Shown piece by piece: positions 45,849 through 62,006 of a stretch of 64,000 nucleotides of DNA. The position numbers and the translations under genes are program-made. The stretch lies in the UHGV virus genome UHGV-1519562; one strand, 5' to 3'. Under the pieces are notes generated by a model. The model was given only the letters and a program-made list of their open reading frames with translations. It did not search any database and was not told where the DNA came from. The DNA comes from a virus. Positions within the stretch are counted from its first letter, which is position 1, and every line of letters starts with the position of its first letter.

Positions 45849-46279
45849 TTTTAAATTTCTGCGAAATTTAAAATCAAAAAGAAAATTCGTTTTTTAAATT
45901 TAAAATTGACTTAACTCGTTGTTCAAATTTAAAAATGGTTTAGAGAGGGAAATGTCCAGGCCAAATGGTTTTTAATAACAAATATAATTTTTTTCCCGAA
46001 AACTACCCCGGAGTACGCCAAACCATTAAACTATCTTTCATTGGTAAATATCCATTGACCCCACAAAGGCCCCATCAAACAGCATCTTTTGTAAACAACC
46101 ATTCATTAATCAAAAGAGAAATGGTCTTGTCAATAGGCAAATTAAACAAAATTATTTTTCAGCAAAACGCATAAAGAAGAACTCTTAATTTCTTTTTCTT
46201 TTGTTTAATGCGTCAATAGACAAAAGACTATCTCAATGGTATAATAAATACAGAAATTAAGGAAAGGGGTCAATGACCT

Positions 46280-46627: not shown

Positions 46628-46648
46628 GCAGAACCATTTTCTTTTTTT
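46607..46648 (+). terminator. intrinsic terminator
   Basis: atggttctgctc / gagcagaaccat hairpin then T-run. Confidence 0.55.
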
Positions 46649-46733
46649 ATTTTATAAATAAATAAATGAAAAAGGTATTGACATTCTGGTTGAAGTATGG
46701 TATACTATAAATAACAAAAGGAGGAAAGATCAA

Positions 46734-46937
46734 ATGAAAAAGACTTTTGAGTTCTATGCTTGCTCACCTGTTAAGACATGGCGGAACAACTACCAGGGAG
46801 AAAGTTGGCAGTGGGCTAAAGTTCAATGGTTTCGCTTCCCTTCTGGTCTGCGCAAGTGTTTAGTCTTTCCTGATGGTCAGGCAATCAAGATTGAACTTTG
46901 TAAGGTTAAAAACAAAAGAGAGGTTAAGAAAGTATGA
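46734..46937 (+). CDS. hypothetical protein
   Basis: 67 aa; promoter TTGACA-17-TGGTATACT at 46678-46706, RBS AAAGGAGG. Confidence 0.55.
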   Translation: MKKTFEFYACSPVKTWRNNYQGESWQWAKVQWFRFPSGLRKCLVFPDGQAIKIELCKVKNKREVKKV

Positions 46938-47164
46938 AAGAGTTGTACATGATGTATAATAAACGCTATGCAACAGGTATAAGTTTTTATACAAATTATG
47001 AAACTGCTTTGTTAGCAAGATACATTGCTTGTATAAAGATATCTAAACATGAAAAAGACAATGTAATGACAGAGTTTAGCACAAAAGAAGTAAGACAAAA
47101 ATATTGTAAAGATTGGTTTAACATTCTTAATATTAAACAGTTGATGTTGGTAGGAAGGAGATGA
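46934..47164 (+). CDS. hypothetical protein
   Basis: 76 aa, start overlaps previous stop (ATGA). Confidence 0.45.
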   Translation: MKELYMMYNKRYATGISFYTNYETALLARYIACIKISKHEKDNVMTEFSTKEVRQKYCKDWFNILNIKQLMLVGRR

Positions 47165-47390
47165 AAAACTTCATCTCTTTCCTTTTGTTTAACATACTTG
47201 TTATAAACGAATGTCTTCGTTTTACAAGGCAACTTTCCGAATCAGTATACCACAAAGTCTGCTCAAAATCAATAGTCAAAATAGCTAAATTTAGAGGGAG
47301 AATTGGGATCCCGAATTGTGCAGTATGCCTATTGACCTATTGCGGCAAGTGTGTTATTATATAATTACAAAAGGAAAGGGGATAAAACAA

Positions 47391-47576
47391 ATGAAGAACA
47401 TCAAGAAGATCATTGGTGTCAAGATGGACAAAGCTAACAAGGCGATCCTTGACAAGTGGAAGGAATGGATCAAAGAAGAGGGCCGCGATGAAACCAGTAA
47501 GAATGACTTCGCTAACTATTACGCCAACTCTTATGAAGAGTATCAGCAGATTTGGGAAGTGGTTGAATGTTTGTAA
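47391..47576 (+). CDS. hypothetical protein
   Basis: 61 aa from ATG 47391 after promoter and AAAGGAAAGGGG leader. Confidence 0.5.
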   Translation: MKNIKKIIGVKMDKANKAILDKWKEWIKEEGRDETSKNDFANYYANSYEEYQQIWEVVECL

Positions 47577-47642
47577 AAAAGTCTTGACAAGAAGCTCAGT
47601 CTGTGGTATAATAAGACCATAACAAAAGAAAGGATGATTTTT

Positions 47643-48008
47643 ATGTTGAAAAAGACAGTCTACTTCTGTGAGTATTGCAGTGAGGTTTTTGAGGACTATG
47701 ACAGCTGCAACTTGCACGAGATGGAAGAAATGGCGAAGCGTTGTGAGGATAGCTTCAAGCTGTATGATAAGCTCGGCGAAGTCAAGCTCAACCTTAAGCT
47801 AATCCTGCACCTATTATTGCTATCTTGTGCGATGGTAATAAAGAAGCCGTTGAATTGCTCAAGCGCTATTTCATTAGCTTCGACCATAAAGCCCCTTCTC
47901 TTGCTCCGGGAGAAGAAGCCCTCTTGGTGCTCAATGAACGCACTGGTAACTGGTGCAATATTGATGAAGCCATTCAACAGCTTCAAGATTTGTTCTAAAC
48001 AGCAATGA
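47643..48008 (+). CDS. hypothetical zinc-finger-like protein, possibly frameshifted near 47795 (downstream part looks better in another frame ending 47997)
   Basis: N-terminal CEYC...C..H; promoter TTGACA-17-TGGTATAAT at 47584-47612; alternative frame 47798-47997 is open and protein-like. Confidence 0.4.
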   Translation: MLKKTVYFCEYCSEVFEDYDSCNLHEMEEMAKRCEDSFKLYDKLGEVKLNLKLILHLLLLSCAMVIKKPLNCSSAISLASTIKPLLLLREKKPSWCSMNALVTGAILMKPFNSFKICSKQQ

Positions 48009-48089
48009 AAAAGGAAAGTTTTGCGGCCTTCCTTTTTCTTTTATTTGTATTGTGTAAGTTTTTATTCTTAATTTGTGCATTTTTACCTA

Positions 48090-48123
48090 TTGACATCTTC
48101 CCAAAATTATGTTATTATATAAT
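48090..48123 (+). promoter_or_regulatory. about 45-bp promoter module (copy 1 of 2 near-identical copies; second at about 55852)
   Basis: ttacctattgacatcttcccaaaattatgttattatataatca versus ttacttattgacattttcccaaaattatgttattatataatca. Confidence 0.5.
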
Positions 48124-48149
48124 CAAGATAAAGAAAGGGGAAACAAAAG

Positions 48150-48482
48150 ATGATTAACAAGGAACTGTTCGACAGCCGGTACACCACAACCTACTATGAA
48201 AGCGCTTATGTGCTTCACGATGGAGACTTGACTCTCTACTATCCCAACTGCGGTTATGACCCTGAGAAAATCATGGTCTGGAAGATTACTGCTGAGGATT
48301 ACCGCTTTTATGGCAAAGGCGCTCTGAAAGAACTGCTGGAAGTTCTTTACAAGGAAGCTGCTCCTGAGTTGGTGGCTCTGGTTGATAGCAAACTCCGATT
48401 GGCAACTAACGACGAGGAATGTGCTACGCTTGTTAAGCACAAGTATCCCAACGACAAACAGCGCTACATTGACATGTGGTAA
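48150..48482 (+). CDS. hypothetical protein
   Basis: 110 aa, GC-rich codon usage, RBS AAAGGGGAAA. Confidence 0.55.
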   Translation: MINKELFDSRYTTTYYESAYVLHDGDLTLYYPNCGYDPEKIMVWKITAEDYRFYGKGALKELLEVLYKEAAPELVALVDSKLRLATNDEECATLVKHKYPNDKQRYIDMW

Positions 48483-48503
48483 AAAGTAAAGGAGCTGATT
48501 AGA

Positions 48504-48725
48504 ATGATAACAATCTTTCACAAAGCAGGTATTGCTTTCAGGGGAGAATATCTCCGGGAAGCTTGCAGGAAGAACTACGATTGGCTTACTTTAATGTATG
48601 CCGTTGAAGATTATAACCGCGCTGTGAAGCGTTACTACAAGTATGTTTCTCGTCACCACGCAGTTATCCTTAACAAATATCCTTCTGGCGATGTTATCGC
48701 TCTTGAAGAAGGAGTAATTCTATAA
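48504..48725 (+). CDS. hypothetical protein
   Basis: 73 aa, RBS AAAGGAG, terminator downstream. Confidence 0.5.
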   Translation: MITIFHKAGIAFRGEYLREACRKNYDWLTLMYAVEDYNRAVKRYYKYVSRHHAVILNKYPSGDVIALEEGVIL

Positions 48726-48750
48726 GGGCCGCAAGGCCCTTTTTCTTTTT
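48724..48750 (+). terminator. intrinsic terminator
   Basis: aagggcc gcaa ggccctt then T-run. Confidence 0.6.
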
Positions 48751-48854
48751 TGCTATATGCTTATATAGTGAAACTTCTAGGCTTCTAGCGAAAAAAAAAT
48801 AAATAAAAATTTTTTTGTTTAATTTACCTATTGACACCAAAGAAAAAGTATGGT

Positions 48855-48930
48855 ATAATAATTGCGGCGGCGCGCACACGACCATGGCTTTCCAATGCGC
48901 GCCGAAATTCTGTCAATACGCAAATTGCAC
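48855..48930 (+). repeat. GC-rich stem-loop intergenic element, copy B (directly downstream of a promoter)
   Basis: cggcgcgc ... gcgcgccg stem (48858-48894), then aaattctgtcaatacgcaaattgcacaa box. Confidence 0.5.
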
Positions 48931-49092
48931 AAAAATTTAGAGGAAAGTTTGGTGATTTTGCCCAGAAGTATTCATCCCGAAATGGTATTTGTTTATAAAA
49001 AGTATAGCGGCAAAACATTATCAAAATTGATTATTGAATTTCTTAAAAAATTTTGTTATAATAATTACAGAAAACAAAAGGAGGTCAAAAGT

Positions 49093-49254
49093 ATGGCTGA
49101 ATACCGTGACTGGCTGGTAGTTTTCCCCAATGGTGGGCAGATACATTTTGATAACAAGGGTATCGCAATGCAGAACGCAACCCGCAAGAAAGGCTTTGTC
49201 TATGAGTGTCATCTGGAAGAGAATGGGAATGAAACTCTCATTCATATCTTTTGA
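49093..49254 (+). CDS. hypothetical small protein
   Basis: 53 aa from ATG 49093 after promoter and AAAAGGAGG; the longer track ORF from 48862 runs over promoter and repeat. Confidence 0.5.
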   Translation: MAEYRDWLVVFPNGGQIHFDNKGIAMQNATRKKGFVYECHLEENGNETLIHIF

Positions 49255-49269
49255 TAGGAGGTATTGCGT

Positions 49270-49449
49270 ATGAAGCAGACTTATTCTATCTATCATGCAG
49301 GCGATGAAGAAATTATCGGGCCTTTTGATTCCTTTTCATTGGCAGAGGATTTCTTTCATAGGTTAGCTCAGTATGCTACTACAATGTATTACTTGGTAGA
49401 TGATTCTACTGGTGAAATTCTTCTTGATATTGAAGAAATTAAGGCTTGA
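49270..49449 (+). CDS. hypothetical small protein
   Basis: 59 aa from ATG 49270, RBS TAGGAGG. Confidence 0.5.
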   Translation: MKQTYSIYHAGDEEIIGPFDSFSLAEDFFHRLAQYATTMYYLVDDSTGEILLDIEEIKA

Positions 49450-49507
49450 CATTTGGGCCTTACCGTGGTATAATTACCATAGAAACAAAGGAAAGAGGTT
49501 GATACTT

Positions 49508-49963
49508 ATGACTGACAAAATGTTGGCTTTTGATATGGACGGCACTATTGCTGACCTGTATGGGGTTAATGGTTGGCTGTCTAAGCTGCGGAAGGAAGAT
49601 GCAAGCCCTTACCTGGAAGCTAAACCCATGTGGGATGTGGATAAGCTCAACGAGCTTATCAATAAACTAAAGCAGGCTGGTTGGGAGATTGCAATCATCA
49701 CTTGGCTTTCTAAAGAAAGCAGCCCTGAGTATGCAAAGACTGTGCGAGAAGCTAAAAAGGCTTGGCTCTTGAAATGGGGTTTCCCCTATGACCACTTTCA
49801 TGGTCTAAAGTATGGAGCCACTAAAGCGGATGCTGTTCGTAGAAAAGCATCTAAGGCAATTCTTATTGATGATAATAAGAAAGTTCGTGACAGTTGGCAT
49901 TTAGGAGAAACTGTTAATCCTGAAACTTGTAACATCATTGATTTTTTGGCTTCCCTGCTTTAA
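49508..49963 (+). CDS. HAD-superfamily 5'(3')-deoxyribonucleotidase-like hydrolase
   Basis: Motif I AFDMDGTIADL (DxDGT) and motif IV ILIDDN; promoter and AAAGAGG leader upstream. Confidence 0.65.
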   Translation: MTDKMLAFDMDGTIADLYGVNGWLSKLRKEDASPYLEAKPMWDVDKLNELINKLKQAGWEIAIITWLSKESSPEYAKTVREAKKAWLLKWGFPYDHFHGLKYGATKADAVRRKASKAILIDDNKKVRDSWHLGETVNPETCNIIDFLASLL

Positions 49964-50045
49964 GCAGGGAGTCAAAAAAGTTCTTGACAAATGAGAAAAA
50001 ATCTGGTATAATGAGTACAGAAATTAAGAAAGAGGTAGATGCAAC

Positions 50046-50741
50046 ATGAGTATTGACAAGCGCAGACATTACGTTCTGCTTCTGGACACTGAGACAGCAA
50101 ACACCATCACTGACCAAAAAGGCCGATTAGACATGACCTCAGTTCTTGTCTATGATTGCGGGTGGTGTGTTATGGACACAAGAGGAAATATCTATAAGGA
50201 ACAATCCTTTGTTAATCGAGATATTTTCTTTGATGAAAGTGAGCTTATGAAATCCGCCTACTACGCGGAAAAGATTCCCCAGTATCTGGAAGATATTCGA
50301 CAGGGCATCCGACAAGTAGCTAACACTTACCAGATTCGACAGACTATGCTTGCAGACATGGCAGAATATGGTATTACAGAAGTAGTTGCCCACAATGCAA
50401 GATTCGACCTGAACGCATTGAATTTACTTCAACGCTGGACTACCAAAAGTAAATACCGCTATTGGTTCCCCTATGGTACCGATTTTTGGGATACTCTCAA
50501 AATGGCAAGAGATGTTATTCTAAAGATGCCTACCTATAAAAGGTTCTGTGAACAACACGGTTTTTTAACCAAAACTGGTAAACTCTCAGCAACAGCAGAA
50601 AATCTGTATAGATTCATCACCAAAGACCCTACTTTTCAGGAAGAACATAAAGGTCTTGACGATGTGCGGATTGAGCGGGAGATTATGATTTACTGCTATC
50701 GGCAAAAGAAGAAAATGCGGAAAAAACTTTTTGAAAATTAA
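50046..50741 (+). CDS. DEDDh (DnaQ-like) 3'-5' exonuclease
   Basis: Exo I LLLDTETA, Exo II VAHNARFDL, Exo III HKGLDDVRIERE; promoter at 49984-50012. Confidence 0.7.
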   Translation: MSIDKRRHYVLLLDTETANTITDQKGRLDMTSVLVYDCGWCVMDTRGNIYKEQSFVNRDIFFDESELMKSAYYAEKIPQYLEDIRQGIRQVANTYQIRQTMLADMAEYGITEVVAHNARFDLNALNLLQRWTTKSKYRYWFPYGTDFWDTLKMARDVILKMPTYKRFCEQHGFLTKTGKLSATAENLYRFITKDPTFQEEHKGLDDVRIEREIMIYCYRQKKKMRKKLFEN

Positions 50742-50749
50742 AAAACCGC

Positions 50750-50778
50750 TTGACAAAACAAAAGGAAAATGATATAAT
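50750..50778 (+). promoter_or_regulatory. promoter with about 85-nt structured leader
   Basis: TTGACA-17-GATATAAT; leader has a hairpin (gaggg...ccctc) and the motif tagggtagcgacctaccgcacagaaagg. Confidence 0.5.
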
Positions 50779-50862
50779 ATAAGAGAAGTGAGGGAAAGAA
50801 AACCCTCTCCACTTCCTTAACAATTAGGGTAGCGACCTACCGCACAGAAAGGAATTGATATT

Positions 50863-51219
50863 ATGACTAACGAGAAGAAGATTACTAACAAGGGCGCCCT
50901 TCAGTATGTTCTGGACAACTGCGAGATTCCTGCCGACGTTCGTGCCAAGATTGAGATTCTGCTCCATCAGCAAGAGAACAAGAGCCGTGGTAGTGGTAAG
51001 CCTACTGCAACTCAGACTGAGAACGCACGTCTGATTGAAGTGATTGCCGACACTCTGCCCAAGGGCGAGGCTTTCACCATCTCCGACATTACCAAGACCA
51101 TTCCTGAGCTGAACGGCTTTACCCCTCAGAAGGTTGGCCCCATGCTCAAGAAGCTGGTTGAAACTGGCCGAGCCACCCGTGACACTAACAAGGGCAAGGC
51201 ATATTATACTATGGTGTGA
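50863..51219 (+). CDS. hypothetical protein, paralog family 1 (copy 1)
   Basis: 118 aa; shares TQTEN..LIE and IPEL.GFTPQKVGPM motifs with 54200..54616; GC-rich codon usage. Confidence 0.6.
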   Translation: MTNEKKITNKGALQYVLDNCEIPADVRAKIEILLHQQENKSRGSGKPTATQTENARLIEVIADTLPKGEAFTISDITKTIPELNGFTPQKVGPMLKKLVETGRATRDTNKGKAYYTMV

Positions 51220-51229
51220 TAATTGAATA

Positions 51230-51258
51230 AAGAGGGGCATTAAGCCCCTCTTTATTTT
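51230..51258 (+). terminator. intrinsic terminator
   Basis: aaagaggggc atta agcccctcttt then T-rich. Confidence 0.5.
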
Positions 51259-51278
51259 CTCAAAAAGGATGGTGTTTA

Positions 51279-51641
51279 ATGATAGATGAAGCTAGGGTTA
51301 AACATCTTCAAAAGGTGTTAGACCTTGATAGAAAACAAGCTTTAGCGGTTATTGCCGATGATGAAGCAATAGATAAAGGTGCAGACCTTTTCCCACTTAC
51401 TGATGAACAAAAGAAAGTAGAAAAGAAAATGCGGTTATCCGGCAAAGAGAAAGGCAAGTACACTATGAATGCTCCCCGACAGCGCAAGGTTGACAATGAC
51501 AAACATCGCTTGATTGAGATTATTGCGGAATCTCTTGAACAGCTTGAAATTGAAACTACCATCAATAACCCAGAGCGAGAAATTGAGATAGTTTTTAATG
51601 AAAGACGTTTCAAAATTACATTAAGCGCTCCTAGAAAATAA
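51279..51641 (+). CDS. hypothetical protein, paralog family 2 (copy 1)
   Basis: 120 aa; C-terminal NPEREIEIVFNERRFKITL matches NPERQIAFSVDNNAFELTL of 54647..55030. Confidence 0.6.
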   Translation: MIDEARVKHLQKVLDLDRKQALAVIADDEAIDKGADLFPLTDEQKKVEKKMRLSGKEKGKYTMNAPRQRKVDNDKHRLIEIIAESLEQLEIETTINNPEREIEIVFNERRFKITLSAPRK

Positions 51642-51645
51642 TAAC

Positions 51646-51683
51646 AAAACCGGCTTATTTTTTATAAGCCGGTTTTGTTTTTT
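51646..51683 (+). terminator. intrinsic terminator
   Basis: aaaaccggcttat / ataagccggtttt then T-run. Confidence 0.6.
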
Positions 51684-51699
51684 GTCTAATACTTCTTAA

Positions 51700-51800
51700 T
51701 GACAAATGTTTGGCGGCCCGCGCATGGTCAAGCGCTGCCGCATTTCAATTATACCAGGTAATCCGACTTTTGTCAATGGGCAAACCGCACAATTATTTAA
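51700..51800 (+). repeat. GC-rich stem-loop intergenic element, copy C
   Basis: tttggcggcccgcgc atggtcaa gcgctgccgc, then aattatacc and ttttgtcaatgggcaaaccgcacaa box; promoter follows. Confidence 0.5.
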
Positions 51801-51894
51801 CCTTTTGTTTTCCCAAAATTGGTGATTCTACCTATTGATTTTTTTATTAAAATTTTATATAATATAATTGTTCCAAGGGAAAGGAGAAACAAAA

Positions 51895-52089
51895 ATGAAG
51901 ATTAATTACAAATCTTTCAGCGTGGAAGTTTTTGGTGAGAACATTTGGGGCCAAACCTATCTGAACAGAGTGGGCTTTGATTCTGAGGAAGAAGCCGATA
52001 AGTTTATTGAGTCTCTGGAAGAGGAAGAAGGAGTTTATTCGGCAATTAAAATTGTAAATACAAGTTATAATTTCAGAAAAAACCCTTGA
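51895..52089 (+). CDS. hypothetical small protein
   Basis: 64 aa from ATG 51895 after TTGATT-17-TATAAT promoter and AAAGGAG. Confidence 0.5.
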   Translation: MKINYKSFSVEVFGENIWGQTYLNRVGFDSEEEADKFIESLEEEEGVYSAIKIVNTSYNFRKNP

Positions 52090-52146
52090 CAAACAAACCA
52101 AGACGTGTTATAATAAATACAGAAATTAAGAAAGAGGTTGACAATT

Positions 52147-52257
52147 ATGAATGAAAATAAGACTACTCCTTGGTATATCTATCAGCCGGGCAAATGGAGC
52201 TACTTCTTATTTCTAGTTCCCTTGATTCTTCTCATTCTTATCTTTATAAGTACCTAA
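52147..52257 (+). CDS. small hydrophobic peptide (single TM helix), below the ORF-track size cutoff
   Basis: 36 aa MNENKTTPWYIYQPGKWSYFLFLVPLILLILIFIST with consensus promoter/leader (aatacagaaattaagaaagaggttga). Confidence 0.45.
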   Translation: MNENKTTPWYIYQPGKWSYFLFLVPLILLILIFIST

Positions 52258-52292
52258 AAGATACTTATAAAAATCTGGATTGTCTTCAAAAA

Positions 52293-52312
52293 GGCTTGAC
52301 AAACGTCAAGCC
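52293..52312 (+). promoter_or_regulatory. palindromic operator overlapping -35 (GGCTTGACAAACGTCAAGCC)
   Basis: Perfect 20-bp palindrome containing the TTGACA box; second copy CTTGACATACGTCAAG at 52750-52765. Confidence 0.5.
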
Positions 52313-52348
52313 GAGTGGTATAATAATAACAGAAAGAGGTTGATATAA

Positions 52349-52492
52349 ATGATTTCTACTATTGCTCTGGCTTCCCTGGCTGCCATTATGATGGTGAAGG
52401 TGTTCGTTGCGGTTGAGCGTGAGGATTACCGCAAAATGTTTGTCAGCGGATTTGAGTTTGCTCTTCTGCTTCTGACTTTAGCTAATATTTAA
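52349..52492 (+). CDS. small membrane peptide
   Basis: 47 aa MISTIALASLAAIMMVKVFVAVER...FEFALLLLTLANI; RBS and promoter. Confidence 0.45.
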   Translation: MISTIALASLAAIMMVKVFVAVEREDYRKMFVSGFEFALLLLTLANI

Positions 52493-52505
52493 GGAGGTAA
52501 ATATA

Positions 52506-52754
52506 ATGAGAATTTATTCCATTAAACATCTGTTCGACAAAGAAGTTGCTGGTTTTTATCGAGAAATGAAAGAAAGCGTTGAAACAAAAGAAGAAGTAGA
52601 AAATGCTGTTTATCTGGTAACGGGTATGCAGGTTATGGCAAGTATTATTGCCGAAGGAAGTGATGAAGAGGTTCTTGCCATTGAACATGAAACTTGGGAT
52701 TATTGGGTTCCAAAGTTTAAGAAACTTCTGGAAAATCTTCCTGAAAAGGCTTGA
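52506..52754 (+). CDS. hypothetical protein
   Basis: 82 aa, RBS AAGGAGG. Confidence 0.5.
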   Translation: MRIYSIKHLFDKEVAGFYREMKESVETKEEVENAVYLVTGMQVMASIIAEGSDEEVLAIEHETWDYWVPKFKKLLENLPEKA

Positions 52755-52810
52755 CATACGTCAAGTTCTATGATATAATAAAGCCATAATAAAGAAAGGA
52801 AGTCGATACT

Positions 52811-53011
52811 ATGACTAAAGAGGAATTCTTAGACACTTTGCAGGAGGTCGGCTATGAATGGAGCAGAACGCTCAATGAGCACAAGTATGACTACTCGGAT
52901 TTCGAGTGGAAGATGCTTGGTTGGTTAGCTGGTGAATTGATTGACCATTTCGACCAAGCAATTGATTCAATTCGTGATGAACTTCAGGAGGAGGAGGAAG
53001 AGGAAGAATGA
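52811..53011 (+). CDS. hypothetical acidic protein (poly-Glu tail)
   Basis: 66 aa ending EEEEEEE; promoter with palindromic -35 at 52750. Confidence 0.5.
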   Translation: MTKEEFLDTLQEVGYEWSRTLNEHKYDYSDFEWKMLGWLAGELIDHFDQAIDSIRDELQEEEEEEE

Positions 53012-53256
53012 GAATGATAGAAAAGATTGAGAGATTCTTTCTTCTTGATGAAGAAGAAAGAACAATTCTCAAGAAAGCTGGAAGCATTTTGTATGACATG
53101 GGAGAAGCTATTGATAGCTCTGGAAGAGTTTCCTTATTCTATGCAAAATTTACTGAGCCGATTGAAAAAATCCGAAACTACGATGAAGGAAACTTTTATG
53201 ACCTTTCAGATTTATTGACTGTTCTTTCTAAAAAAGAAAGAATTGATATTGAATAA
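53008..53256 (+). CDS. hypothetical protein
   Basis: 82 aa, overlapping start. Confidence 0.45.
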   Translation: MRMIEKIERFFLLDEEERTILKKAGSILYDMGEAIDSSGRVSLFYAKFTEPIEKIRNYDEGNFYDLSDLLTVLSKKERIDIE

Positions 53257-53271
53257 AGAAAGGATAGATAC

Positions 53272-53430
53272 ATGGAAAAGTATTGTTTTGTAGTTATGAC
53301 TACTGACGAAGGTATTGATGCTCCAGAGATGGTTTATCTTAATAAAGAAGCGGCTATAAAAGCGGCTGAGGCTCTTCAAAACGAAAGAGAAGAAGATTGT
53401 TGGGTAGAAAAAGTACAGTTTATTAAATGA
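53272..53430 (+). CDS. hypothetical small protein
   Basis: 52 aa MEKYCFVVMTTDEG...; RBS AAAGGA; terminator downstream. Confidence 0.4.
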   Translation: MEKYCFVVMTTDEGIDAPEMVYLNKEAAIKAAEALQNEREEDCWVEKVQFIK

Positions 53431-53438
53431 TATTAAAA

Positions 53439-53464
53439 ATAAGGGCCTTTGGCCCTTATTTTTT
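53439..53464 (+). terminator. intrinsic terminator
   Basis: aataagggcc ttt ggcccttatt then T-run. Confidence 0.6.
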
Positions 53465-53520
53465 ACTTGACAGATTTTTCTTTCTATGTTATAATAACAA
53501 TAGAAAAGGAGTGAAGCAAA

Positions 53521-53724
53521 ATGACAGATTTTGCAAGAGCTGAAATTCTTCTTAAAGCTTTACAGGAAGCAGGAAGATATATGCGGAAATATTTACCCGC
53601 AGAAATGCCTCTGGGTGAAGATGCCGATATTACAAGATACTGTTTGATAAATGGTAATCAAGACCCAGAAGGCTCTAAGTTTGTAGAATACTTCATTCTT
53701 AAAGCATTTGACAGTTACAAGTAA
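53521..53724 (+). CDS. hypothetical protein
   Basis: 67 aa; promoter, leader and RBS AAAAGGAG. Confidence 0.5.
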   Translation: MTDFARAEILLKALQEAGRYMRKYLPAEMPLGEDADITRYCLINGNQDPEGSKFVEYFILKAFDSYK

Positions 53725-53747
53725 GGGCTAAAAGCCCTTACTTTTTT
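53721..53747 (+). terminator. intrinsic terminator
   Basis: gtaagggct aaa agcccttac then T-run. Confidence 0.6.
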
Positions 53748-53754
53748 ATTTTTA

Positions 53755-53880
53755 TATTTGTTATAAACAAAAGTCAAGTGATAGCAAAGTTTGGCGGCGC
53801 GTTGATGGCTGACATGCGCCGCAATTTAATTATACCCCAAGCCACGCCTTTTGTCAAGAGTTAAACTGCACAAAATCTAT
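53755..53880 (+). repeat. GC-rich stem-loop intergenic element, copy D
   Basis: ttgttataaacaaaagt..tttggcggcgcg ttgatggctgacat gcgccgc aatttaattatacc ..ttttgtcaag..gcacaa. Confidence 0.5.
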
Positions 53881-53940
53881 TTGAGGAAAATCCCGCTTTT
53901 TGTATAATTTGCCTATTGCAATTTGGGTGAAATCTGATAT

Positions 53941-54110
53941 AATAAATAATGTCAGGAGGGAGTAGCCCAAGAAATCCTAGGGCGGCCGACCTGTGAGAAA
54001 GTATAGGAAGTAAACGAAATACATCAAGTGGTAAGTCTTATATCATGTGGTAATTGTTATTGCCCAACATGCTCTGGAAGCCGTAAATCTTGTGAAAAGT
54101 TTGCGAAACC
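53941..54110 (+). ncRNA. promoter-proximal transcribed non-coding segment (leader or small RNA) with the conserved tagggcggccgacctgtgagaaag motif
   Basis: Between promoter about 53905-53940 and promoter 54113-54141; no ORF with start and RBS; holds a Cys-rich 48-codon frame without RBS. Confidence 0.3.
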
Positions 54111-54199
54111 TCTTGACAAACCCCAAGAAACGTGCTATAATAAGCATGTAATCAAGAGAAGGACAAACTCTTAAAAACCAGAAAGCGAGATAGGTGTTT

Positions 54200-54616
54200 A
54201 TGGAAAATACTAACAAGAGAATTACTAAGCGTGAGCGTTTCCAGTCTCTGATTGAGCTGGTGGAACTGTGCGAAGGCCGTGAAGACGAAGGCTTTGACTT
54301 TGAGGGTCTGACCGATTTCCTCTCCAACGAGATTCGCCTGCTGGAAGCTAAGAAGGGTTCCAATTCCCGCAAGCAGACTGTTCGCCAGACTGAGAATGAG
54401 CATTTTAAGGCTCTGATTGCTGAGCAGTTGACCGAAGAGGGCATGACCATTGCAATGCTCCGCAAGGCCATTCCTGAACTGGAAGATTTAACTCCCCAGC
54501 GTATTGCCCCTATGTGCAAGGCTCTTGTTTCTGAGGGCATTGCTTACAAGGATACCCACAAAGGTATTGCCCACTTTTACAAGGCGCAGGCCGTGGTAGA
54601 AGAGGAAGAGGGCTAA
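54200..54616 (+). CDS. hypothetical protein, paralog family 1 (copy 2)
   Basis: 139 aa from ATG 54200; paralog of 50863..51219; ends EEEEG with stop inside a hairpin. Confidence 0.6.
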   Translation: MENTNKRITKRERFQSLIELVELCEGREDEGFDFEGLTDFLSNEIRLLEAKKGSNSRKQTVRQTENEHFKALIAEQLTEEGMTIAMLRKAIPELEDLTPQRIAPMCKALVSEGIAYKDTHKGIAHFYKAQAVVEEEEG

Positions 54617-54646
54617 GGCCCTCTTCCCTAGAGGGGAGGTATATTT

Positions 54647-55030
54647 TTGGACAAAGCAAAAGAAGCAATCGCAAGAATCCAAGCCGGCATCAAGTGCAGT
54701 TATGAAAAAGCAGTAGAAATCTATAAGGCAGATTGCGAGGTTGATAAAGGCATCCCGCACGAATGGGATTTGACCGAGGAACAGCAAAAGGTAGCAAAGA
54801 AATACACCATTACCGGACAACACACCAAAAAGCATGACCGCAAGACCCCTATTAAAAGAGAAAGGAAGGAAAACCCCACTAAGGCAAATTTGATTGCGGA
54901 ACTTGCAGGTTTTCTTGAATCTTTGGGGATTTGTGACGTAAAAATTGCAAATCCTGAGCGACAGATTGCTTTTTCTGTTGATAATAACGCCTTTGAGCTG
55001 ACTTTAGTTCAGAAAAGGGCCAAAAAGTAA
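54647..55030 (+). CDS. hypothetical protein, paralog family 2 (copy 2)
   Basis: 127 aa; paralog of 51279..51641; RBS GAGGGGAGG. Confidence 0.6.
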   Translation: MDKAKEAIARIQAGIKCSYEKAVEIYKADCEVDKGIPHEWDLTEEQQKVAKKYTITGQHTKKHDRKTPIKRERKENPTKANLIAELAGFLESLGICDVKIANPERQIAFSVDNNAFELTLVQKRAKK

Positions 55031-55087
55031 AGTTTTTAGCCCTTTTCACTTAAAAAAGAGCTAATTTTGACGAAAAAGGTGATGTAA

Positions 55088-55432
55088 ATGCAACAAAAGA
55101 AAGAGTATTTGTATGTAGGCCACTATTTTGATATAGAGGGTAACTACATTCTTAAAATAGGTACTACTAATGATTTAGCCAGGAGACAGCAAGAGCATAC
55201 CAGAAATTATAAGCATTCACCTAAGTTTACTATGCCGAAATCCGCAAAGTTTGTCTATGATTGGTATCTGCCTTTGTCTAAATATTCGACTTTGCGGTAT
55301 GAGGATAAGAATCGTGCGGCATGGCAGGAATCTTCTATCGGTGAATTTGTCCGCAATGACAGATTTTGCTGTAAGCAAAAGCCCAAGAAAGTAAAGGTTA
55401 CTATCCGCAAAACCTATGAGATCGAGCTATAA
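55088..55432 (+). CDS. GIY-YIG / T5orf172-like domain protein
   Basis: YLYVGHYFDIEGNYILKIGTTNDLARRQQEH resembles the GIY-YIG/T5orf172 core. Confidence 0.45.
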   Translation: MQQKKEYLYVGHYFDIEGNYILKIGTTNDLARRQQEHTRNYKHSPKFTMPKSAKFVYDWYLPLSKYSTLRYEDKNRAAWQESSIGEFVRNDRFCCKQKPKKVKVTIRKTYEIEL

Positions 55433-55445
55433 GGAGGAAGAGAAC

Positions 55446-55667
55446 ATGATTGTTATTAAAAAGCAATGCGAGGTTCGCTTATCCCAAGAAGAAATTGATC
55501 GTCTTGAGCAAGCCTCTGACATTCTTAATCAAATTTGGGAGGTGATGTCTGCTAGTAGTTATATTGGCAAATACGAAACCATTGATACCGCAAAAGTGGG
55601 AGAAGCATCAGATATTTTGCAAAACTTAGCAGAGATCGGCGAAAATATCGTAATTGAAGATGCTTGA
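55446..55667 (+). CDS. hypothetical acidic protein
   Basis: 73 aa from ATG 55446, RBS AAGGAGG. Confidence 0.5.
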   Translation: MIVIKKQCEVRLSQEEIDRLEQASDILNQIWEVMSASSYIGKYETIDTAKVGEASDILQNLAEIGENIVIEDA

Positions 55668-55675
55668 TTATTAAA

Positions 55676-55706
55676 GGATAGTGGTTATTAACCACTATCC
55701 TTTTTT
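55676..55706 (+). terminator. intrinsic terminator
   Basis: ggatagtgg ttattaa ccactatcc then TTTTTT. Confidence 0.6.
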
Positions 55707-55719
55707 ATCCCTATACTTG

Positions 55720-55830
55720 TTATAAGCAAAAGTAAAGTAATAACAAAACTCGGCGGGCCGCGCTTGGTGGATGCGGCCCGAATTCGCGTCAATATACATT
55801 TTCCACAATTTTTCTGCTTTTGATTTGTAC
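55720..55830 (+). repeat. GC-rich stem-loop intergenic element, copy E
   Basis: cttgttataagcaaaagt..cggcgggccgcg cttggtggat gcggcccg aattcgcgtcaatatac..ccacaa; perfect 8-bp stem cgggccgc/gcggcccg. Confidence 0.5.
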
Positions 55831-55987
55831 AATTTTACTTATTGACATTTTCCCAAAATTATGTTATTATATAATCACAAAAGGAAAGGAGATTTAAAAA
55901 TTTCAAAAAAAAAATAAAAAAAGGTCTTGACAAACCAGGGCAAAGATGCTATAATGAATACAGAAATTAAGGAAAGAGGTTGATAGT

Positions 55988-56263
55988 ATGAATGAACGCA
56001 GAGACTTCATCGCAAAGAACTGGGGTGAGGATGTTCTTGAAGCTATTGATAGCTGTGAGCCGTTAAACATTACCTTTGGTCAGTTTTTGGACAAGTGCGT
56101 TGCTTGCGGTGGCAACTGGGACGGTATGCTTCTAACTGGCCTGAAGAAGTTGCGGCCTGAGATTTGGGAAGCCATTCCCCAAAATATGGGTCTTTATGCT
56201 TGGCAGTGCATCTGCAACACTTTAATTCTTGCTGGTGTAGTTATGGAAGAAGAAGAGGGCTAA
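55988..56263 (+). CDS. hypothetical Cys-containing protein
   Basis: 91 aa; ends EEEEG with stop inside hairpin gaagagggc taaaaa gccctcttc; promoter TTGACA-17-TATAAT at about 55929-55957. Confidence 0.55.
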   Translation: MNERRDFIAKNWGEDVLEAIDSCEPLNITFGQFLDKCVACGGNWDGMLLTGLKKLRPEIWEAIPQNMGLYAWQCICNTLILAGVVMEEEEG

Positions 56264-56296
56264 AAAGCCCTCTTCCATAGAGAAAGGAAGGTAGAA

Positions 56297-56578
56297 ATGG
56301 AAATTAGAAAACCTACGAACTGGTTGAATGCTAAAGGGATGCTTGACAAAACACTACAAGCAAGATCTACAGTAATCACTGAAGCCCTTGGGCGAATTAT
56401 GTTTAATCTTCTAAATGCCGCGGAAGAAGGAAAATTTGCTACTACTATTAATCTTCGAGAAGATACAAAAATTATTACTCAAATACTTGAGGAAGCAGGC
56501 TATAAGGTTCAATTTCTTAAACCAAATGGTGAATACTCACAATATATTGTTTGCTGGGAAAAGGAGGATGAAGAATAA
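56297..56578 (+). CDS. hypothetical protein
   Basis: 93 aa, RBS AAAGGAAGG. Confidence 0.5.
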   Translation: MEIRKPTNWLNAKGMLDKTLQARSTVITEALGRIMFNLLNAAEEGKFATTINLREDTKIITQILEEAGYKVQFLKPNGEYSQYIVCWEKEDEE

Positions 56579-56772
56579 TGATGAAAATCAAAATTGTTGA
56601 CCGCTATAATGGCGATTTCGCGAAGTTTGATTCTTTGCAGAAAGCCTATGACTACTTCATGGACTATGACAAAGAATGTGAGGGAGATTGGTGGCCATTG
56701 ATTACTATTGATGGAGCTTGGGTTCCTCTGGAAGAGTTCTTTGTGATGTGTAAAGAAAGGGGGTGTAAGTAA
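56578..56772 (+). CDS. hypothetical protein (tandem paralog A)
   Basis: 64 aa MMKIKIVDRYNGDFAKF... Confidence 0.5.
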   Translation: MMKIKIVDRYNGDFAKFDSLQKAYDYFMDYDKECEGDWWPLITIDGAWVPLEEFFVMCKERGCK

Positions 56773-56885
56773 TGATGAAAATCAAAATTACTGAACTGTA
56801 CAAAGATGATGTGGCGGAATTTAAGTTTCCGCCAGAAGCATGGGCTTATTTTTGCTATCGGGAAAAGGAATCTAAAGGAAAATGA
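56772..56885 (+). CDS. truncated tandem paralog B of the preceding gene
   Basis: 37 aa MMKIKITELYKDDVAEFKF...; DNA repeat taatgatgaaaatcaaaatt at both starts. Confidence 0.4.
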   Translation: MMKIKITELYKDDVAEFKFPPEAWAYFCYREKESKGK

Positions 56886-56963
56886 TTCCCATTGATATTC
56901 ATCAATAGAAAGATGATATCACCTGAAACGTTGCATAAAATGTGTAGAAAGGTGGGTATTTAA

Positions 56964-57431
56964 TTGTCTTTGCTCTTGTTATTCATTGGTCTTTCTATTG
57001 CCAATGTGGTTTTTTCGACAATCAAAAGCATTGTAACTATTAACGGCACACCATTTTCCGCAAGCATGATTTCTGCTCTGTACTATGGTTATTATAACAT
57101 AGTTCTTATTTACACAGTGGCGGATTTCCCTTTGTGGCAGAAGGTATTAGTTACCTTTGGCTGTAATCTGGTTGGCGTGTATGCGGTTAAGTGGGCGGAA
57201 GCAAAAGGAAGAAAAGAAAAGTTGTGGCGAATTGAGGTTACTGTCCCCGGTGAATTTACAAAACAACTTCACGAAAGACTAAACCCAATTCCGCACAACT
57301 ATATTGAAAATGTAGGTAAATATTCAATTTTTAATATTTACTGTGGTACACAAATGGAGAGTAGTCAAGTCAAGAAAATTTTGGTGGATTACAATGCCAA
57401 ATACTTTGTGACAGAAACTAAAGAACTCTGA
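56964..57431 (+). CDS. membrane protein (two to three N-terminal TM helices plus soluble domain)
   Basis: 155 aa, TTG start; strong terminator downstream. Confidence 0.5.
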   Translation: MSLLLLFIGLSIANVVFSTIKSIVTINGTPFSASMISALYYGYYNIVLIYTVADFPLWQKVLVTFGCNLVGVYAVKWAEAKGRKEKLWRIEVTVPGEFTKQLHERLNPIPHNYIENVGKYSIFNIYCGTQMESSQVKKILVDYNAKYFVTETKEL

Positions 57432-57459
57432 GAATACTCAGAGTTCTTTTTTGTTTTTT
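57421..57459 (+). terminator. intrinsic terminator
   Basis: aagaactctgag aata ctcagagttctt then T-run. Confidence 0.65.
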
Positions 57460-57511
57460 CTAAAAAATTATGTTATAATATATATAGAAATTAAGGAAAG
57501 GAGCTTTTCTA

Positions 57512-57628
57512 ATGACCTGTGAATTATTAAAGGCACTTGCGGTGATTATTGAATACTGTTTAAAGCAGGATAATTACAAAGTTTGTGTTATGCGTGATTT
57601 CTGTTCTAAGATGCCTTGTGAGTGGTAA
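57512..57628 (+). CDS. small Cys-rich peptide (38 aa), below the ORF-track cutoff
   Basis: MTCELLKALAVIIEYCLKQDNYKVCVMRDFCSKMPCEW with consensus TATAAT / leader / AAGGAAAGGAG upstream. Confidence 0.45.
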   Translation: MTCELLKALAVIIEYCLKQDNYKVCVMRDFCSKMPCEW

Positions 57629-57714
57629 ATTACTTTAAAGATTTTAGAGATAGAAAGGCCCATTTTAGGGTCGAAATTTCGCACGTCTAGGTCATCAAAA
57701 AAAAATATCTGGAT

Positions 57715-57915
57715 ATGTTGAAAACTGAATTTGCCAGAAAGCTGGACTCGACTGGTCGATTAGTTATTCCTTCTAAGCTAAGAGATTATCTAGGAATGGA
57801 AACCGGCCAGTTGTTTACTTTTTATGTTCAAAAAGAAGAAAATGGAGATGTGTATTTGTGTGTGAAGTGTCCTAGTAATAAAATAAAATTTACTTTTGGT
57901 GAAAATGCCGATTGA
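57715..57915 (+). CDS. AbrB/MazE (SpoVT-AbrB) family DNA-binding protein
   Basis: ARKLDSTGRLVIPSKLRDYLGMETGQ matches the AbrB N-domain signature; no obvious RBS. Confidence 0.6.
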   Translation: MLKTEFARKLDSTGRLVIPSKLRDYLGMETGQLFTFYVQKEENGDVYLCVKCPSNKIKFTFGENAD

Positions 57916-57940
57916 CATAAGGCTGGTTTTATGGTATACT
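57912..57940 (+). promoter_or_regulatory. consensus promoter driving a non-coding GC-rich region
   Basis: TTGACA, 17 nt, extended -10 TGGTATACT. Confidence 0.55.
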
Positions 57941-57946
57941 ATATAT

Positions 57947-58091
57947 AAGGAGTGGCGGGCTGTGGACAGTGGTCACAGCCCGAAATCCCCTTTCCACTAG
58001 CATATGGCGATTTTTCTAGACTTCTAGCGACCCTTCATATGGCCGGGGTTTTTCCCGAAAGTGGCTCACCCGCTCGGAAAAAATTTTTTTT
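57947..58091 (+). ncRNA. candidate structured small RNA (GC-rich, about 145 nt)
   Basis: Perfect stem gggctgtg/cacagccc (57957-57981), ccgggg and gcggg/cccgc pairing, ends in a hairpin plus A/T run; no ORF with usable RBS spacing; GC far above local background. Confidence 0.4.
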
Positions 58092-58148
58092 AATTTGTCA
58101 AGTCAAAGTCCGCATTTGACTTTTTAAAAATTTAAGGCATAAAAAAAA

Positions 58149-58199: not shown

Positions 58200-58293
58200 T
58201 AATAATTAAAATTATTATATAATATTTATATAAACAAAAGGAAAAAGAAAAGAGAAGCACATATGCCCGCTCGGCTTGTTGAAAGTGGGAGTG

Positions 58294-61962: not shown

Positions 61963-62006
61963 TCAATAATCGAATATTATATTAGTAAAATTGAAGGAGA
62001 ATAATA

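Follow-up and report, generated by a model that had tools for sequence, protein, structure and literature searches.

Intergenic GC hairpins of a gut phage appear to belong to a boundary cassette of promoters and terminators

Introduction

What are the GC-rich hairpins that recur between early genes of the virus genome UHGV-1519562, and what might they do? The window analysed here is a stretch of 64,000 nucleotides (64 kb) of this genome. An earlier note, made from the letters alone, had described four intergenic sites that share the motif ttgttataaRcaaaagt, a GC stem, the motif aattYaattatacc and a ttttgtcaaT..cacaa box. We analysed these sites in the window and in related phages.

Results

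Four hairpins and their surroundings

A scan of the whole window found exactly three perfect all-GC hairpins with 7-bp stems in 64 kb (48868-48904, 53794-53822 and 55754-55780), and 300 block shuffles of the window gave a mean of 0.003 such hairpins and a maximum of 1. The fourth GC hairpin, at 51713-51741 (copy 2), has a stem of 5+4 bp with an internal loop. The four GC hairpins exist and are non-random. Their folding energies range from -16 to -20 kcal/mol on either strand, and their loops measure 8-21 nt compared with 11 nt in the canonical form. Such GC-rich palindromes are conspicuous against the AT-rich genome.

The shared module stood only in part. All four sites have the ttttgtcaa...cacaa box, in degenerate form at copy 4. 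The other parts are restricted: ttgttataaRcaaaagt is confined to copies 3 and 4 and a hairpin-less relic at 47198, and aattYaattatacc to copies 2 and 3, being absent from copies 1 and 4, which are shorter by ~26 nt. The partial copies noted near 46125 and 47195 do have promoter-like parts but no hairpin. The features of the window cassettes are listed below (T1, ordinary terminator; P+1 and P+2, first and second rightward promoter; P-, leftward promoter; H, hairpin).

48724..48741, plus strand: copy 1, ordinary terminator T1 of the upstream gene (terminator scan and sequence)
48831..48859, plus strand: copy 1, intact P+1, TTGACA-17-TATAAT with TG (12/12 match)
48868..48904, no strand assigned: copy 1, hairpin, CGGCGCGC / 21-nt loop / GCGCGCCG, then AAATT (48905-48909)
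48911..48932, minus strand: copy 1, leftward-promoter remnant, -35 TTGACA and upstream TTGTGCAA (minus-strand reading), without -10
49034..49062, plus strand: copy 1, P+2, for the gene at 49094-49254
51643..51679, no strand assigned: copy 2, ordinary T1, bidirectional (called on both strands)
51713..51741, no strand assigned: copy 2, hairpin, GCGGC..GCGC / ATGGTCAA / GCGC.GCCGC (5+4 bp, internal loop), then ATTTC
51748..51792, minus strand: copy 2, intact P- (12/12 with TG), -35 51776-51771, -10 51753-51748, upstream TTGTGCGG 51792-51785
51835..51863, plus strand: copy 2, P+2, for the gene at 51897-52089
53719..53743, plus strand: copy 3, ordinary terminator T1
53758..53790, plus strand: copy 3, decayed P+1 (the ttgttataaacaaaagt of the earlier note), -35 changed from TTGACA to TAAACA (alignment to intact P+1 copies)
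53794..53822, no strand assigned: copy 3, hairpin, GCGGCGC / 15-nt loop / GCGCCGC, then AATTT
53829..53873, minus strand: copy 3, intact P- (12/12), -35 53857-53852, -10 53834-53829, upstream TTGTGCAG
53916..53943, plus strand: copy 3, P+2, then a non-coding leader to ~54110
55677..55709, plus strand: copy 4, ordinary terminator T1
55717..55749, plus strand: copy 4, decayed P+1 (ttgttataagcaaaagt; alignment to intact P+1 copies)
55754..55780, no strand assigned: copy 4, hairpin of the canonical 27 nt, CGGGCCGC / 11-nt loop / GCGGCCCG, then AATTC
55787..55808, minus strand: copy 4, leftward-promoter remnant, -35 TTGACG and upstream TTGTGGAA, without -10
55842..55870, plus strand: copy 4, P+2 (11/12)
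47195..47290, no strand assigned: relic copy that has lost its hairpin, P+1 and leftward promoter both decayed
46125..46152, minus strand: relic, leftward -35 and upstream box only, without hairpin

The conserved boxes are promoter parts

The boxes flanking the hairpins had been taken for new motifs. To judge from their sequence, ttttgtcaaT..cacaa and aattYaattatacc are instead the -35, the upstream TTGTGCA element and the -10 of a leftward promoter of the phage's own class, seen from the wrong strand: in reverse complement, the box reads as the plus-strand promoter class TTGTGCA..CCTATTGACA. The region 42.5-62 kb contains 14 perfect 12/12 promoters, and exactly 2 of them lie on the minus strand, at copies 2 and 3. 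By the same kind of comparison, ttgttataaRcaaaagt is a decayed rightward promoter, and the decayed P+1 of copies 3 and 4 and of the relic at 47195 can be aligned to intact P+1 copies. TTGYRCAA boxes flank the cassette promoters. P+1 is intact at copy 1 only, P- at copies 2 and 3 only, and copy 4 has lost both.

This changes how the hairpins are placed relative to promoters. Copy 1 does lie just downstream of P+1, as had been noted, but since the boxes form a leftward promoter, the hairpins of copies 2 and 3, besides lying upstream of a plus-strand promoter, sit immediately downstream of a minus-strand one that had been missed. All transcription start sites given here are predictions from spacing rules. 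At copy 1 the -10 of P+1 lies 8 nt ahead of the stem and the predicted start is at ~48866, 2 nt before the stem; the predicted starts of P- are the G at 51741 in copy 2 and the G at 53822 in copy 3, each being the first stem base.

A canonical cassette in related phages

Lack of conservation in related phages had been named beforehand as an outcome that would speak against the element. It is kept in ~80 related gut phage contigs of 80-200 kb, and 79 related loci were found. These are large siphovirus-type phages of gut Firmicutes, with Clostridia as probable hosts. The four window sites appear to be complete or partly decayed copies of a boundary cassette specific to this family. Its parts follow the order T1, P+1 (sigma-A-type), hairpin H, ARTTT, P- (same class), TTGCACAA box, P+2 and genes, and it recurs about every 2 kb, separating early-gene modules of ~2 kb. 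H invariably follows an ordinary T1 and precedes P+2. The canonical H has 27 nt, with 8 GC pairs and an 11-nt loop, and lies within the conserved flanks TTYGG-H-ARTTT; 121 of the 181 hairpins with promoter context have exactly this length.

The geometry around H is tight. The distance from the -10 to the stem is 2-4 nt for P+1 (91/107) and 7-8 nt for P- (62/67), and the -10 elements of the two facing promoters are 32-39 bp apart. Among 256 strong minus-strand promoters in the related loci, 80 have such a hairpin at the P- offset. Both promoters are present in 21 distinct copies in relatives (for example L001 14462-14575 and L047 6620-6720), and both are lacking, by the criteria used here, from 56 of 128 distinct copies. 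The part of the cassette that stays constant is H: it is kept perfectly paired, its orientation with respect to the early genes is fixed, and it remains conserved where both promoters decay. The same layout occurs in the distant relative phAss-1 and a more loosely similar one in Enterococcus phage H1, where leftward promoters are directly followed by small GC hairpins. H itself is limited to one phage lineage. No Rfam family matched the window at the gathering score, and 46000-56500 gave only weak, terminator-driven matches far under it, in keeping with the view that the family is distinct.

The hairpins had been held not to be plain terminators, as they lack a U-tract. U-tracts are indeed weak in the window copies, with just 2-3 U 3' of the stem (AAATT, ATTTC, AATTT and AATTC in copies 1-4). 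Across the family the consensus is A-R-T-T-T-(T/C), and the first 9 nt contain 4.2 T on average, against 6 T in the short form seen in relatives; the first two bases are A-R, not U, in ~90% of copies, and ARTTT is kept in every class of copies. Short-form copies (H-AGTTTTTTG, that is, stem-AGUUUUUUG) look like good intrinsic terminators by sequence, and the window stems, with 7-8 all-GC pairs, have the stem-loop stability of an intrinsic terminator.

Stem pairing and sequence conservation

The earlier note had argued that stems that differ between copies yet stay complementary point to selection on pairing, and the covariation analysis bears this out. In an alignment of 79 distinct related hairpins, pairing holds in 97.8% of cells, 121 cells are compensatory and both-side changes occur at 6 of the 8 stem pairs; none of 500 shuffles reached the observed pairing and covariation. 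When sites were picked without use of the 3' arm, 63 of 84 (75%) were still perfectly complementary. Matches lie on the gene strand in 84 cases versus 3 on the opposite strand. Four stem pairs are conserved in sequence, as is CG at loop positions 4-5 (~90%), which is more than a plain terminator needs; loop positions 8-9 are also CG in ~70%. Wobble pairs are nearly absent from the stems.

Module exchange at the cassettes

Recombination breakpoints do fall at the elements in related genomes. In the 95%-identical phage L001 the cassette 51785-53815, bounded by copies 2 and 3, is replaced, with one junction in the box of copy 2 and the other in or near the hairpin of copy 3. A homology breakpoint lies within 30 nt of 33% of hairpins versus 18% of ordinary promoters, an enrichment at H of less than two-fold. 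The proposal of a recombination linker therefore fits insofar as mosaic junctions occur at the elements; the two swap junctions differ in position relative to the hairpins, however, which argues against a precise site-specific function. As with the promoter-early stem-loops (PeSLs), recombination here seems to follow from the presence of a conserved, repeated sequence.

Discussion

The anatomy of the cassette is clear; its function we only infer. The most likely role of H, to which we give a probability of roughly 40%, is that of a transcription insulator or back-up terminator that is bypassed by P+1 and caps the leftward transcript. H would stop or insulate rightward RNA polymerases that get past T1. 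Because the -10 of P+1 lies only 2-4 nt from H, the start would fall inside the stem; P+1 transcripts would begin within the 5' arm, be unable to form H and pass through. As P- sits 7-8 nt from H, its transcript would begin exactly with a complete, blunt 5' hairpin and might then be released at once or continue for ~100 nt as far as T1, which is often bidirectional. In cassettes with both promoters intact, the face-to-face footprints would overlap, so that only one polymerase at a time could occupy the unit, adding interference or insulation. As a conserved repeat, the cassette could also serve as a crossover point for module exchange. The position of H after T1 and before P+2, the retention of ARTTT in every class, the terminator-like short form and the P+1 spacing count for an insulator. 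Against it count the 11-nt loop, which is long for an intrinsic terminator, the A-R spacer, the few U, the sequence conservation of four stem pairs and of the loop CG, and the 56 of 128 copies in which neither promoter is recognised; moreover, as T1 always precedes H, little rightward RNA should reach it. The insulator model offers no strong reason for P- to exist. Between copies, the leftward RNA has no conserved single-stranded sequence.

A serious rival, which we nonetheless regard as doubtful, is that a specific factor of the phage or the host recognises H and that the promoters became arranged around it secondarily. The site could be an RNA hairpin for a regulator (nut/boxB-like, or a processing or stability protein) or a single-stranded DNA hairpin used in nicking, priming or recombination. 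The fixed 27-nt size, the invariant four stem pairs, loop CGs and flanks GG and ARTTT, the strict strand orientation (84 versus 3) and the confinement to one phage lineage would all suit such a site, and the near-absence of wobble pairs fits a need for a very exact helix. H also outlasts the decay of both promoters, and T1 shields it from upstream transcription. However, the tight spacing of promoter and stem on both sides points to transcription initiation as part of the function, a nut-like role is unlikely for P+1 with its predicted start inside the stem, and the lack of a fixed position of the swap junctions relative to H speaks against site-specific recombination. Except for one T5orf172-domain protein, the early proteins gave no informative Pfam/PHROG matches, and no candidate partner for H emerged. 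If H, through its invariant stem pairs, loop CG and GG/ARUUU flanks, were a factor docking site and the face-to-face consensus promoters mutually exclusive, the cassette might form a repeated transcriptional gate heading each ~2-kb early module. The initial region of one promoter would be GC-rich and that of the other AT-rich, and early expression could be set, or host polymerase sequestered, by the gate working as a switch or as a trap for RNA polymerase. We consider this quite unlikely; if true, no phage is known to have a regulatory device of this kind.

It is also unlikely that H serves mainly to protect transcripts as a hairpin at their 5' end. In that case the unit would be a small leftward RNA gene, running from P- through the 5' hairpin and ~100 nt to a bidirectional T1, as well as a cap-like 5' stabiliser that keeps P+1 mRNAs from 5'-end-dependent decay by RNase J/RppH. 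The predicted P- start at the first stem base in copies 2 and 3, the family-wide 7-8 nt spacing, the hairpin at that offset in 80 of 256 strong minus-strand promoters, the predicted P+1 start 2 nt before the stem in copy 1, the bidirectional T1 of copy 2 and the leftward promoters with small GC hairpins in Enterococcus phage H1 agree with this. Yet copies that lack any promoter conserve H equally well, the hairpin would be truncated rather than preserved by the usual P+1 spacing of 2-4 nt, the body of the leftward RNA varies between copies and so has no obvious target, and the plus-strand ARTTT is left unexplained. That the elements are mainly recombination linkers or selfish GC palindromes, comparable to PeSL shuffling or mitochondrial GC clusters, with an incidental role in transcription, we hold to be very unlikely. 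The replacement of 51785-53815 in the 95%-identical L001, the breakpoint frequencies (33% at H versus 18% at ordinary promoters, within 30 nt) and the way GC-rich palindromes stand out in an AT-rich genome would be expected, but the enrichment is less than two-fold and the junctions are not site-specific. Stems differ within one genome, so there was no recent transposition, and compensatory changes, fixed orientation and fixed promoter geometry are unexplained by recombination alone.

Hairpins are tied to early promoters in phage N4 as well, where DNA hairpins with a 5-7 bp stem and a 3-nt loop replace the -35/-10 and are read by the virion RNA polymerase. The 8-bp stem, the 11-nt loop and the flanking consensus -35/-10 do not fit a hairpin promoter of this type, and the window showed no gene for a giant RNA polymerase. 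Integron attC and REP-like hairpins are imperfect, with extrahelical bases, and have a cognate integrase or RAYT; we rejected a single-stranded DNA hairpin of this kind, given stems that are perfect in 75% of unbiased matches and swap junctions that are not fixed, and no recombinase was found among the ORFs scanned, which covered part of the genome. Compared with a lambda-type nut site, a complete hairpin would be transcribed from P+1 of copy 1, while most P+1 starts are predicted to lie inside the stem. Stabilising 5'-terminal hairpins are known from the ompA, aprE and ermC leaders of bacterial mRNAs. They resemble P- of copies 2 and 3 and P+1 of copy 1, whose predicted starts leave little or no 5' overhang before a stable hairpin, but here the hairpin is kept even without a promoter and is truncated by the common P+1 spacing. 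With intrinsic or bidirectional terminators, H shares the intergenic position and a GC-rich stem, which in short-form copies of relatives runs into a U-rich stretch; it differs in its 11-nt loop (typically 3-8 nt), the conserved A-R spacer, the mere 3 U of many copies, the conservation of stem and loop positions in sequence, and its place as always the second hairpin, after a normal terminator.

Face-to-face promoters are known from phages P2 and 186 (pR/pL and Pe/Pc), where they form single repressor-governed lysis/lysogeny switches with starts 35-62 bp apart. The cassette resembles these in its pair of convergent promoters, near enough for polymerases to hinder or exclude one another, and 21 distinct copies in relatives carry both promoters, with overlapping predicted footprints; in the window at most one partner survives per copy. 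P2 and 186 have no central hairpin, whereas here the unit recurs every ~2 kb with a GC hairpin between promoters of which one is often decayed. T4-type phages have composite promoter/terminator cassettes of which we regard the present one as a variant; in them, the PeSL consists of a stem-loop (polyG/polyC terminator), an AT-rich region and then a single promoter (PMC2839356, PMC4122927). Both are small intergenic units that combine a consensus sigma-70-type early promoter with a stable GC stem-loop. They cluster among small ORFan early genes, recur many times in each genome and lie at junctions where close relatives differ by insertion, deletion or replacement. The present cassette belongs to a Firmicutes siphovirus lineage unrelated to T4-type phages. 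It differs in its order (promoter, hairpin, opposing promoter, second promoter), with the hairpin inside or after the initial transcribed region of a promoter and faced by a leftward one, and in its fixed 27-nt hairpin with conserved loop and flank bases, always preceded by an ordinary terminator.

The early region of the phage

The phage from which the window derives is large and of the siphovirus type; its minus-strand genes include:

16487-25081, minus strand, tape-measure protein of 2864 aa
35387-37015, minus strand, portal

The GC content is approximately 29% over the genome and 38-40% at 46-58 kb, where small plus-strand genes form a block dense in consensus sigma-70/sigma-A promoters. 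Elsewhere in the window the GC content is 28-31%; this early block (46000-58000) is a sharply delimited island of composition, and the island coincides with the region of consensus promoters. The closest relatives in databases are phAss-1, an uncultured gut phage, and three Enterococcus phages of ∼140 kb (EF1, H1, and VRE9). Clostridia (Eubacteriales) have been predicted as hosts of the phAss-1 group in a paper that makes no mention of promoters or hairpins (PMC10607447). When searched against cultured phages, an 8-kb region had no close nucleotide relative, and a 151-nt cassette of the canonical type described below matched phAss-1 only.

Several other features of the window were observed. 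A 328-aa ORF (1367-2353, plus strand) matches phage reverse transcriptases (phrog_1423, E 1e-58) and adjoins tail-fibre-sized genes on the opposite strand; from this position it may be part of a diversity-generating retroelement, and no template/variable repeat pair was found in the first 12 kb. A dense array of short AT-rich repeats (TTTTAATTATTTT, TATCTATATTTTA) at 60240-60386 may function as an origin or as an array of protein-binding sites. ARAGORN found no tRNA or tmRNA genes.

GC hairpins and the promoters around them

The earlier note had proposed a family of intergenic stem-loops with conserved boxes at four sites, here called copies 1-4. Scanning the 64 kb for perfect all-GC hairpins of 7 bp identified only copy 1 (48868-48904), copy 3 (53794-53822), and copy 4 (55754-55780), against a mean of 0.003 sites in block shuffles, and copy 2 (51713-51741) has a stem of 5 + 4 bp with an internal loop; the earlier observation is confirmed. 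The predicted energies are -16 to -20 kcal/mol on either strand, and the U run is short. Folding of the whole element was unremarkable (z -1.5 to +1.0), with no structure beyond the hairpin, and Rfam gave no match at the gathering score and only weak terminator-like matches. The shared flanks exist but are not uniform, as 'ttgttataaRcaaaagt' is restricted to copies 3 and 4 and 'aattYaattatacc' to copies 2 and 3, with copies 1 and 4 shorter by about 26 nt. Likewise, the partial copies noted at 46125 and 47195 are present but lack the hairpin.

The boxes had been taken for motifs in their own right and are in fact elements of overlooked promoters on the opposite strand. Copies 2 and 3 each carry a perfect (12/12) TTGACA-17-TATAAT on the minus strand, and these are the only minus-strand sites among the 14 perfect promoters at 42.5-62 kb. 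Reverse-complemented, the box part 'gcaaa..cacaa' gives the upstream portion of a promoter class of the phage itself, TTGTGCA-N-CCTATTGACA, found at:

48073-48118, plus strand, promoter of this class
48823-48859, plus strand, promoter of this class
55811-55870, plus strand, promoter of this class

The outermost base of the stem lies 7 nt past the leftward -10 in copy 2 (G at 51741) and copy 3 (G at 53822), so that a leftward transcript would open with a hairpin blunt at its 5' end. In copies 1 and 4 the leftward -35 and the upstream box have been retained and the -10 has been lost. Every column of the 'ttgttataaRcaaaagt' module can be aligned with intact rightward promoters (TTGACA to TAAACA or TAAGCA, GATAAAAT to GCAAAGTT), which identifies it as a decayed promoter; copy 1 has this promoter in intact form, with a predicted start 2 nt ahead of the stem.

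TTGYRCAA boxes are also located at about -45 of every promoter of the phage class and may be a putative operator for some regulator. Examples are:

48925-48932, window, TTGYRCAA box
48073-48080, window, TTGYRCAA box
around 8800-8850, related locus L034, TTGYRCAA boxes

These boxes, TTGCACAA and TTGTGCAA, also form inverted pairs in the interval from the leftward promoter to a second rightward promoter, P+2, with ∼15-25 bp between the members of a pair. The P+2 of copy 3 is followed by a 170-nt non-coding stretch (53944-54110) opening with 'ATAATGTCAGGAGG', an opening that recurs after P+2 in relatives (locus L047, about 9060-9170 and 11605-11720); it may serve as a conserved leader or encode a leaderless mini-ORF or small RNA. 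Seven sites at 57455-63827, outside the GC-richer early block, carry another type of promoter-like sequence, 'AAAATTATnTTATAATATATATAGAAA', which lacks a -35 and hints at a separate temporal class or at a polymerase modified by the phage.

Among the neighboring plus-strand genes is a duplicated two-gene module (50863-51641 and 54194-55030), with paralogues of 118/140 aa (45% identity, E 9e-19) and 120/127 aa (32% identity, E 3e-14). Its proteins have no Pfam matches, the first member looks by eye like a winged-helix DNA binder, and the proteins are candidates for regulating the early promoters. A 114-aa protein with a T5orf172 (GIY-YIG-like) domain (22.4 bits, cut-off 20) is encoded two genes upstream of copy 4 (55088-55432, plus strand), and a similar-looking gene has the same relative position in L047 (8252-8566).

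A stereotyped unit in related phages

We gathered relatives using the neighboring 231-aa exonuclease as an anchor, resulting in 79 loci from IMG/VR, mostly on contigs of 80-200 kb. Across these loci the element is conserved as a unit with the order ordinary terminator (T1), first rightward promoter (P+1), GG, 27-nt hairpin (8-bp stem, 11-nt loop), ARTTT, leftward promoter (P-), TTGCACAA box, the weaker P+2, and genes. A short form retains only the -35 of P-, giving hairpin-AGTTTTTTGTCAA. Units follow each other at a median of 2.2 kb. Hairpin length is exactly 27 nt in 121 of 181 hairpins with promoter context, and the distance from -10 to stem is 2-4 nt for P+1 (91/107) and 7-8 nt for P- (62/67), in agreement with a separate, independent scan. 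Both promoters are present in 21 of 128 distinct copies, P+1 alone is found in 35 and P- alone in 16, and the other 56 have neither; the ARTTT flank is kept in all these classes, and T1 precedes the hairpin essentially always.

Pairing supports the selection on structure that had been suggested from the window copies. In 79 distinct hairpins 97.8% of cells are paired, six of the eight stem pairs vary on both sides, and there are 121 compensatory cells, a level of pairing approached by none of 500 shuffles and by no slid register. These hairpins had been preselected for a paired GC core, and the test was therefore repeated without using the 3' arm, with selection limited to the pattern of the 5' arm, the CG in the loop, and the 3' flank. 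The gene strand gave 84 distinct matches; in 63 of them the 3' arm is fully complementary, and 11 others form 7/8 pairs. On the opposite strand there were three matches, none complementary. Four stem pairs hardly vary (1, 3, 6, and 7, as C:G, G:C, C:G, and G:C), pairs 2, 4, 5, and 8 covary, and loop positions 4-5 are CG in ∼90% of copies. Wobble pairs are nearly absent, and mismatches, as a clue to the selected strand, are very few (GT/TG 6, CA 2, other 5).

The family is distinct, as had been thought. The degenerate pattern CSGSSCGYNNNCGNNNNNNRCGSSCSGARTTT matched 96 stretches in IMG/VR, of which almost all belong to these phages. Searched in 298 Gb of genomes from bacteria and archaea, the pattern gave only scattered matches in GC-rich taxa and matches in 140-190 kb phage-like contigs within Clostridia-type MAGs. 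We attribute the former to chance and the latter to binning of phage-like contigs, and rejected a host-chromosomal (REP-like) origin. The phage phAss-1, with an early region of 50% GC, likewise has promoters face to face, but its hairpin is smaller and the spacing reversed. A looser form of the element is present in Enterococcus phages H1, EF1, and VRE9; H1 has two leftward promoters directly followed by small GC hairpins within its rightward early block. An 800-bp non-coding gap in H1 (locus L080, 17800-18600), with many copies of TTGTGAAAT and ATAAAATAACA and a leftward promoter with GC hairpin, looks like an iteron-type origin or regulatory hub.

Exchange of gene cassettes

The elements also lie at recombination junctions, as the earlier note had anticipated. 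The window and locus L001 are ∼95% identical, and 51785-53815 is exchanged for an unrelated 2.8-kb cassette, with one junction in the leftward promoter of copy 2 and the other in or near the hairpin of copy 3. The replacing cassette (L001 11739-14529) has different genes, one with an AbrB/SpoVT-like N-terminus by eye, and shows whole-module exchange between hairpins. Over all loci, a homology breakpoint lies within 30 nt of 33% of the hairpins compared with 18% of ordinary promoters, and junctions have no fixed position relative to the hairpin. We rejected site-specific (integron-like) exchange, given the junctions ∼43 nt past one hairpin and inside or near the other. The pattern resembles homologous exchange between copies of a conserved repeat, which is also what has been described for the promoter-early stem-loop (PeSL) cassettes of T4-type phages (PMC2839356, PMC4122927).

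Possible functions of the hairpin

The anatomy of the cassette is observed and its function is what we infer. We favor, with a probability of roughly 40%, a role of the hairpin while transcription is under way, as an insulator or a back-up stop that meets rightward polymerases escaping T1. In this reading the placement of P+1 and P- has a purpose: transcripts from P+1 would begin within the 5' arm, and the hairpin could not form; the P- transcript would open with a complete hairpin and would be released instantly or stop at T1, which is often bidirectional. Where both promoters are intact their -10 elements are only 32-39 bp apart, and hence two polymerases must exclude each other or collide. 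A plain terminator is argued against by the 11-nt loop, the conserved A-R preceding the U run, the shortness of that run in the window copies, the sequence-conserved bases in stem and loop, and the T1 already ahead of every hairpin. The same points keep alive recognition of the hairpin by a factor, as RNA or single-stranded DNA, which we consider less probable but a serious rival. It is somewhat less probable that the hairpin is a 5'-stabilizer or the unit a small leftward RNA, which the P- geometry would fit, but the hairpin is conserved even where no promoter remains and the usual P+1 spacing does not fit. A purely recombinational or selfish hairpin is improbable, as orientation, geometry, and compensatory changes would be left unexplained.

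We also rejected a trans-acting leftward sRNA with a conserved seed, as in copies 2 and 3 the bodies of the leftward transcripts have little in common apart from remnants of promoters, and N4-like hairpin promoters, whose geometry does not fit. For T5-like nick sites, no nick consensus was found in the literature searched. Pfam and PHROG gave nothing informative on a partner protein, and presence/absence profiling was dropped since nearly all relatives have the hairpin.

Significance and relation to known cassettes

The element is conserved in ∼80 large uncultured gut phage genomes of 29% to 50% GC, whose hosts are probably Clostridia, and hence marks a core feature of their early-transcription organization. 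TTYGG, the 27-nt GC hairpin, ARTTT, and promoters at fixed offsets provide a compact signature for the early region and its module boundaries, and the element helps account for the sites of cassette exchange. Should the hairpin turn out to bind a factor or to belong to a promoter switch, the phages would be using a new mechanism to control their early genes. The natural overlapping design of promoter, terminator, and antisense promoter could be reusable in Gram-positive synthetic biology.

Overall, the element is best described as a variant of the composite promoter/terminator boundary cassettes of T4-type phages, from which it differs by its face-to-face promoter pair, its highly constrained 27-nt hairpin, and its confinement to one lineage of large gut phages.
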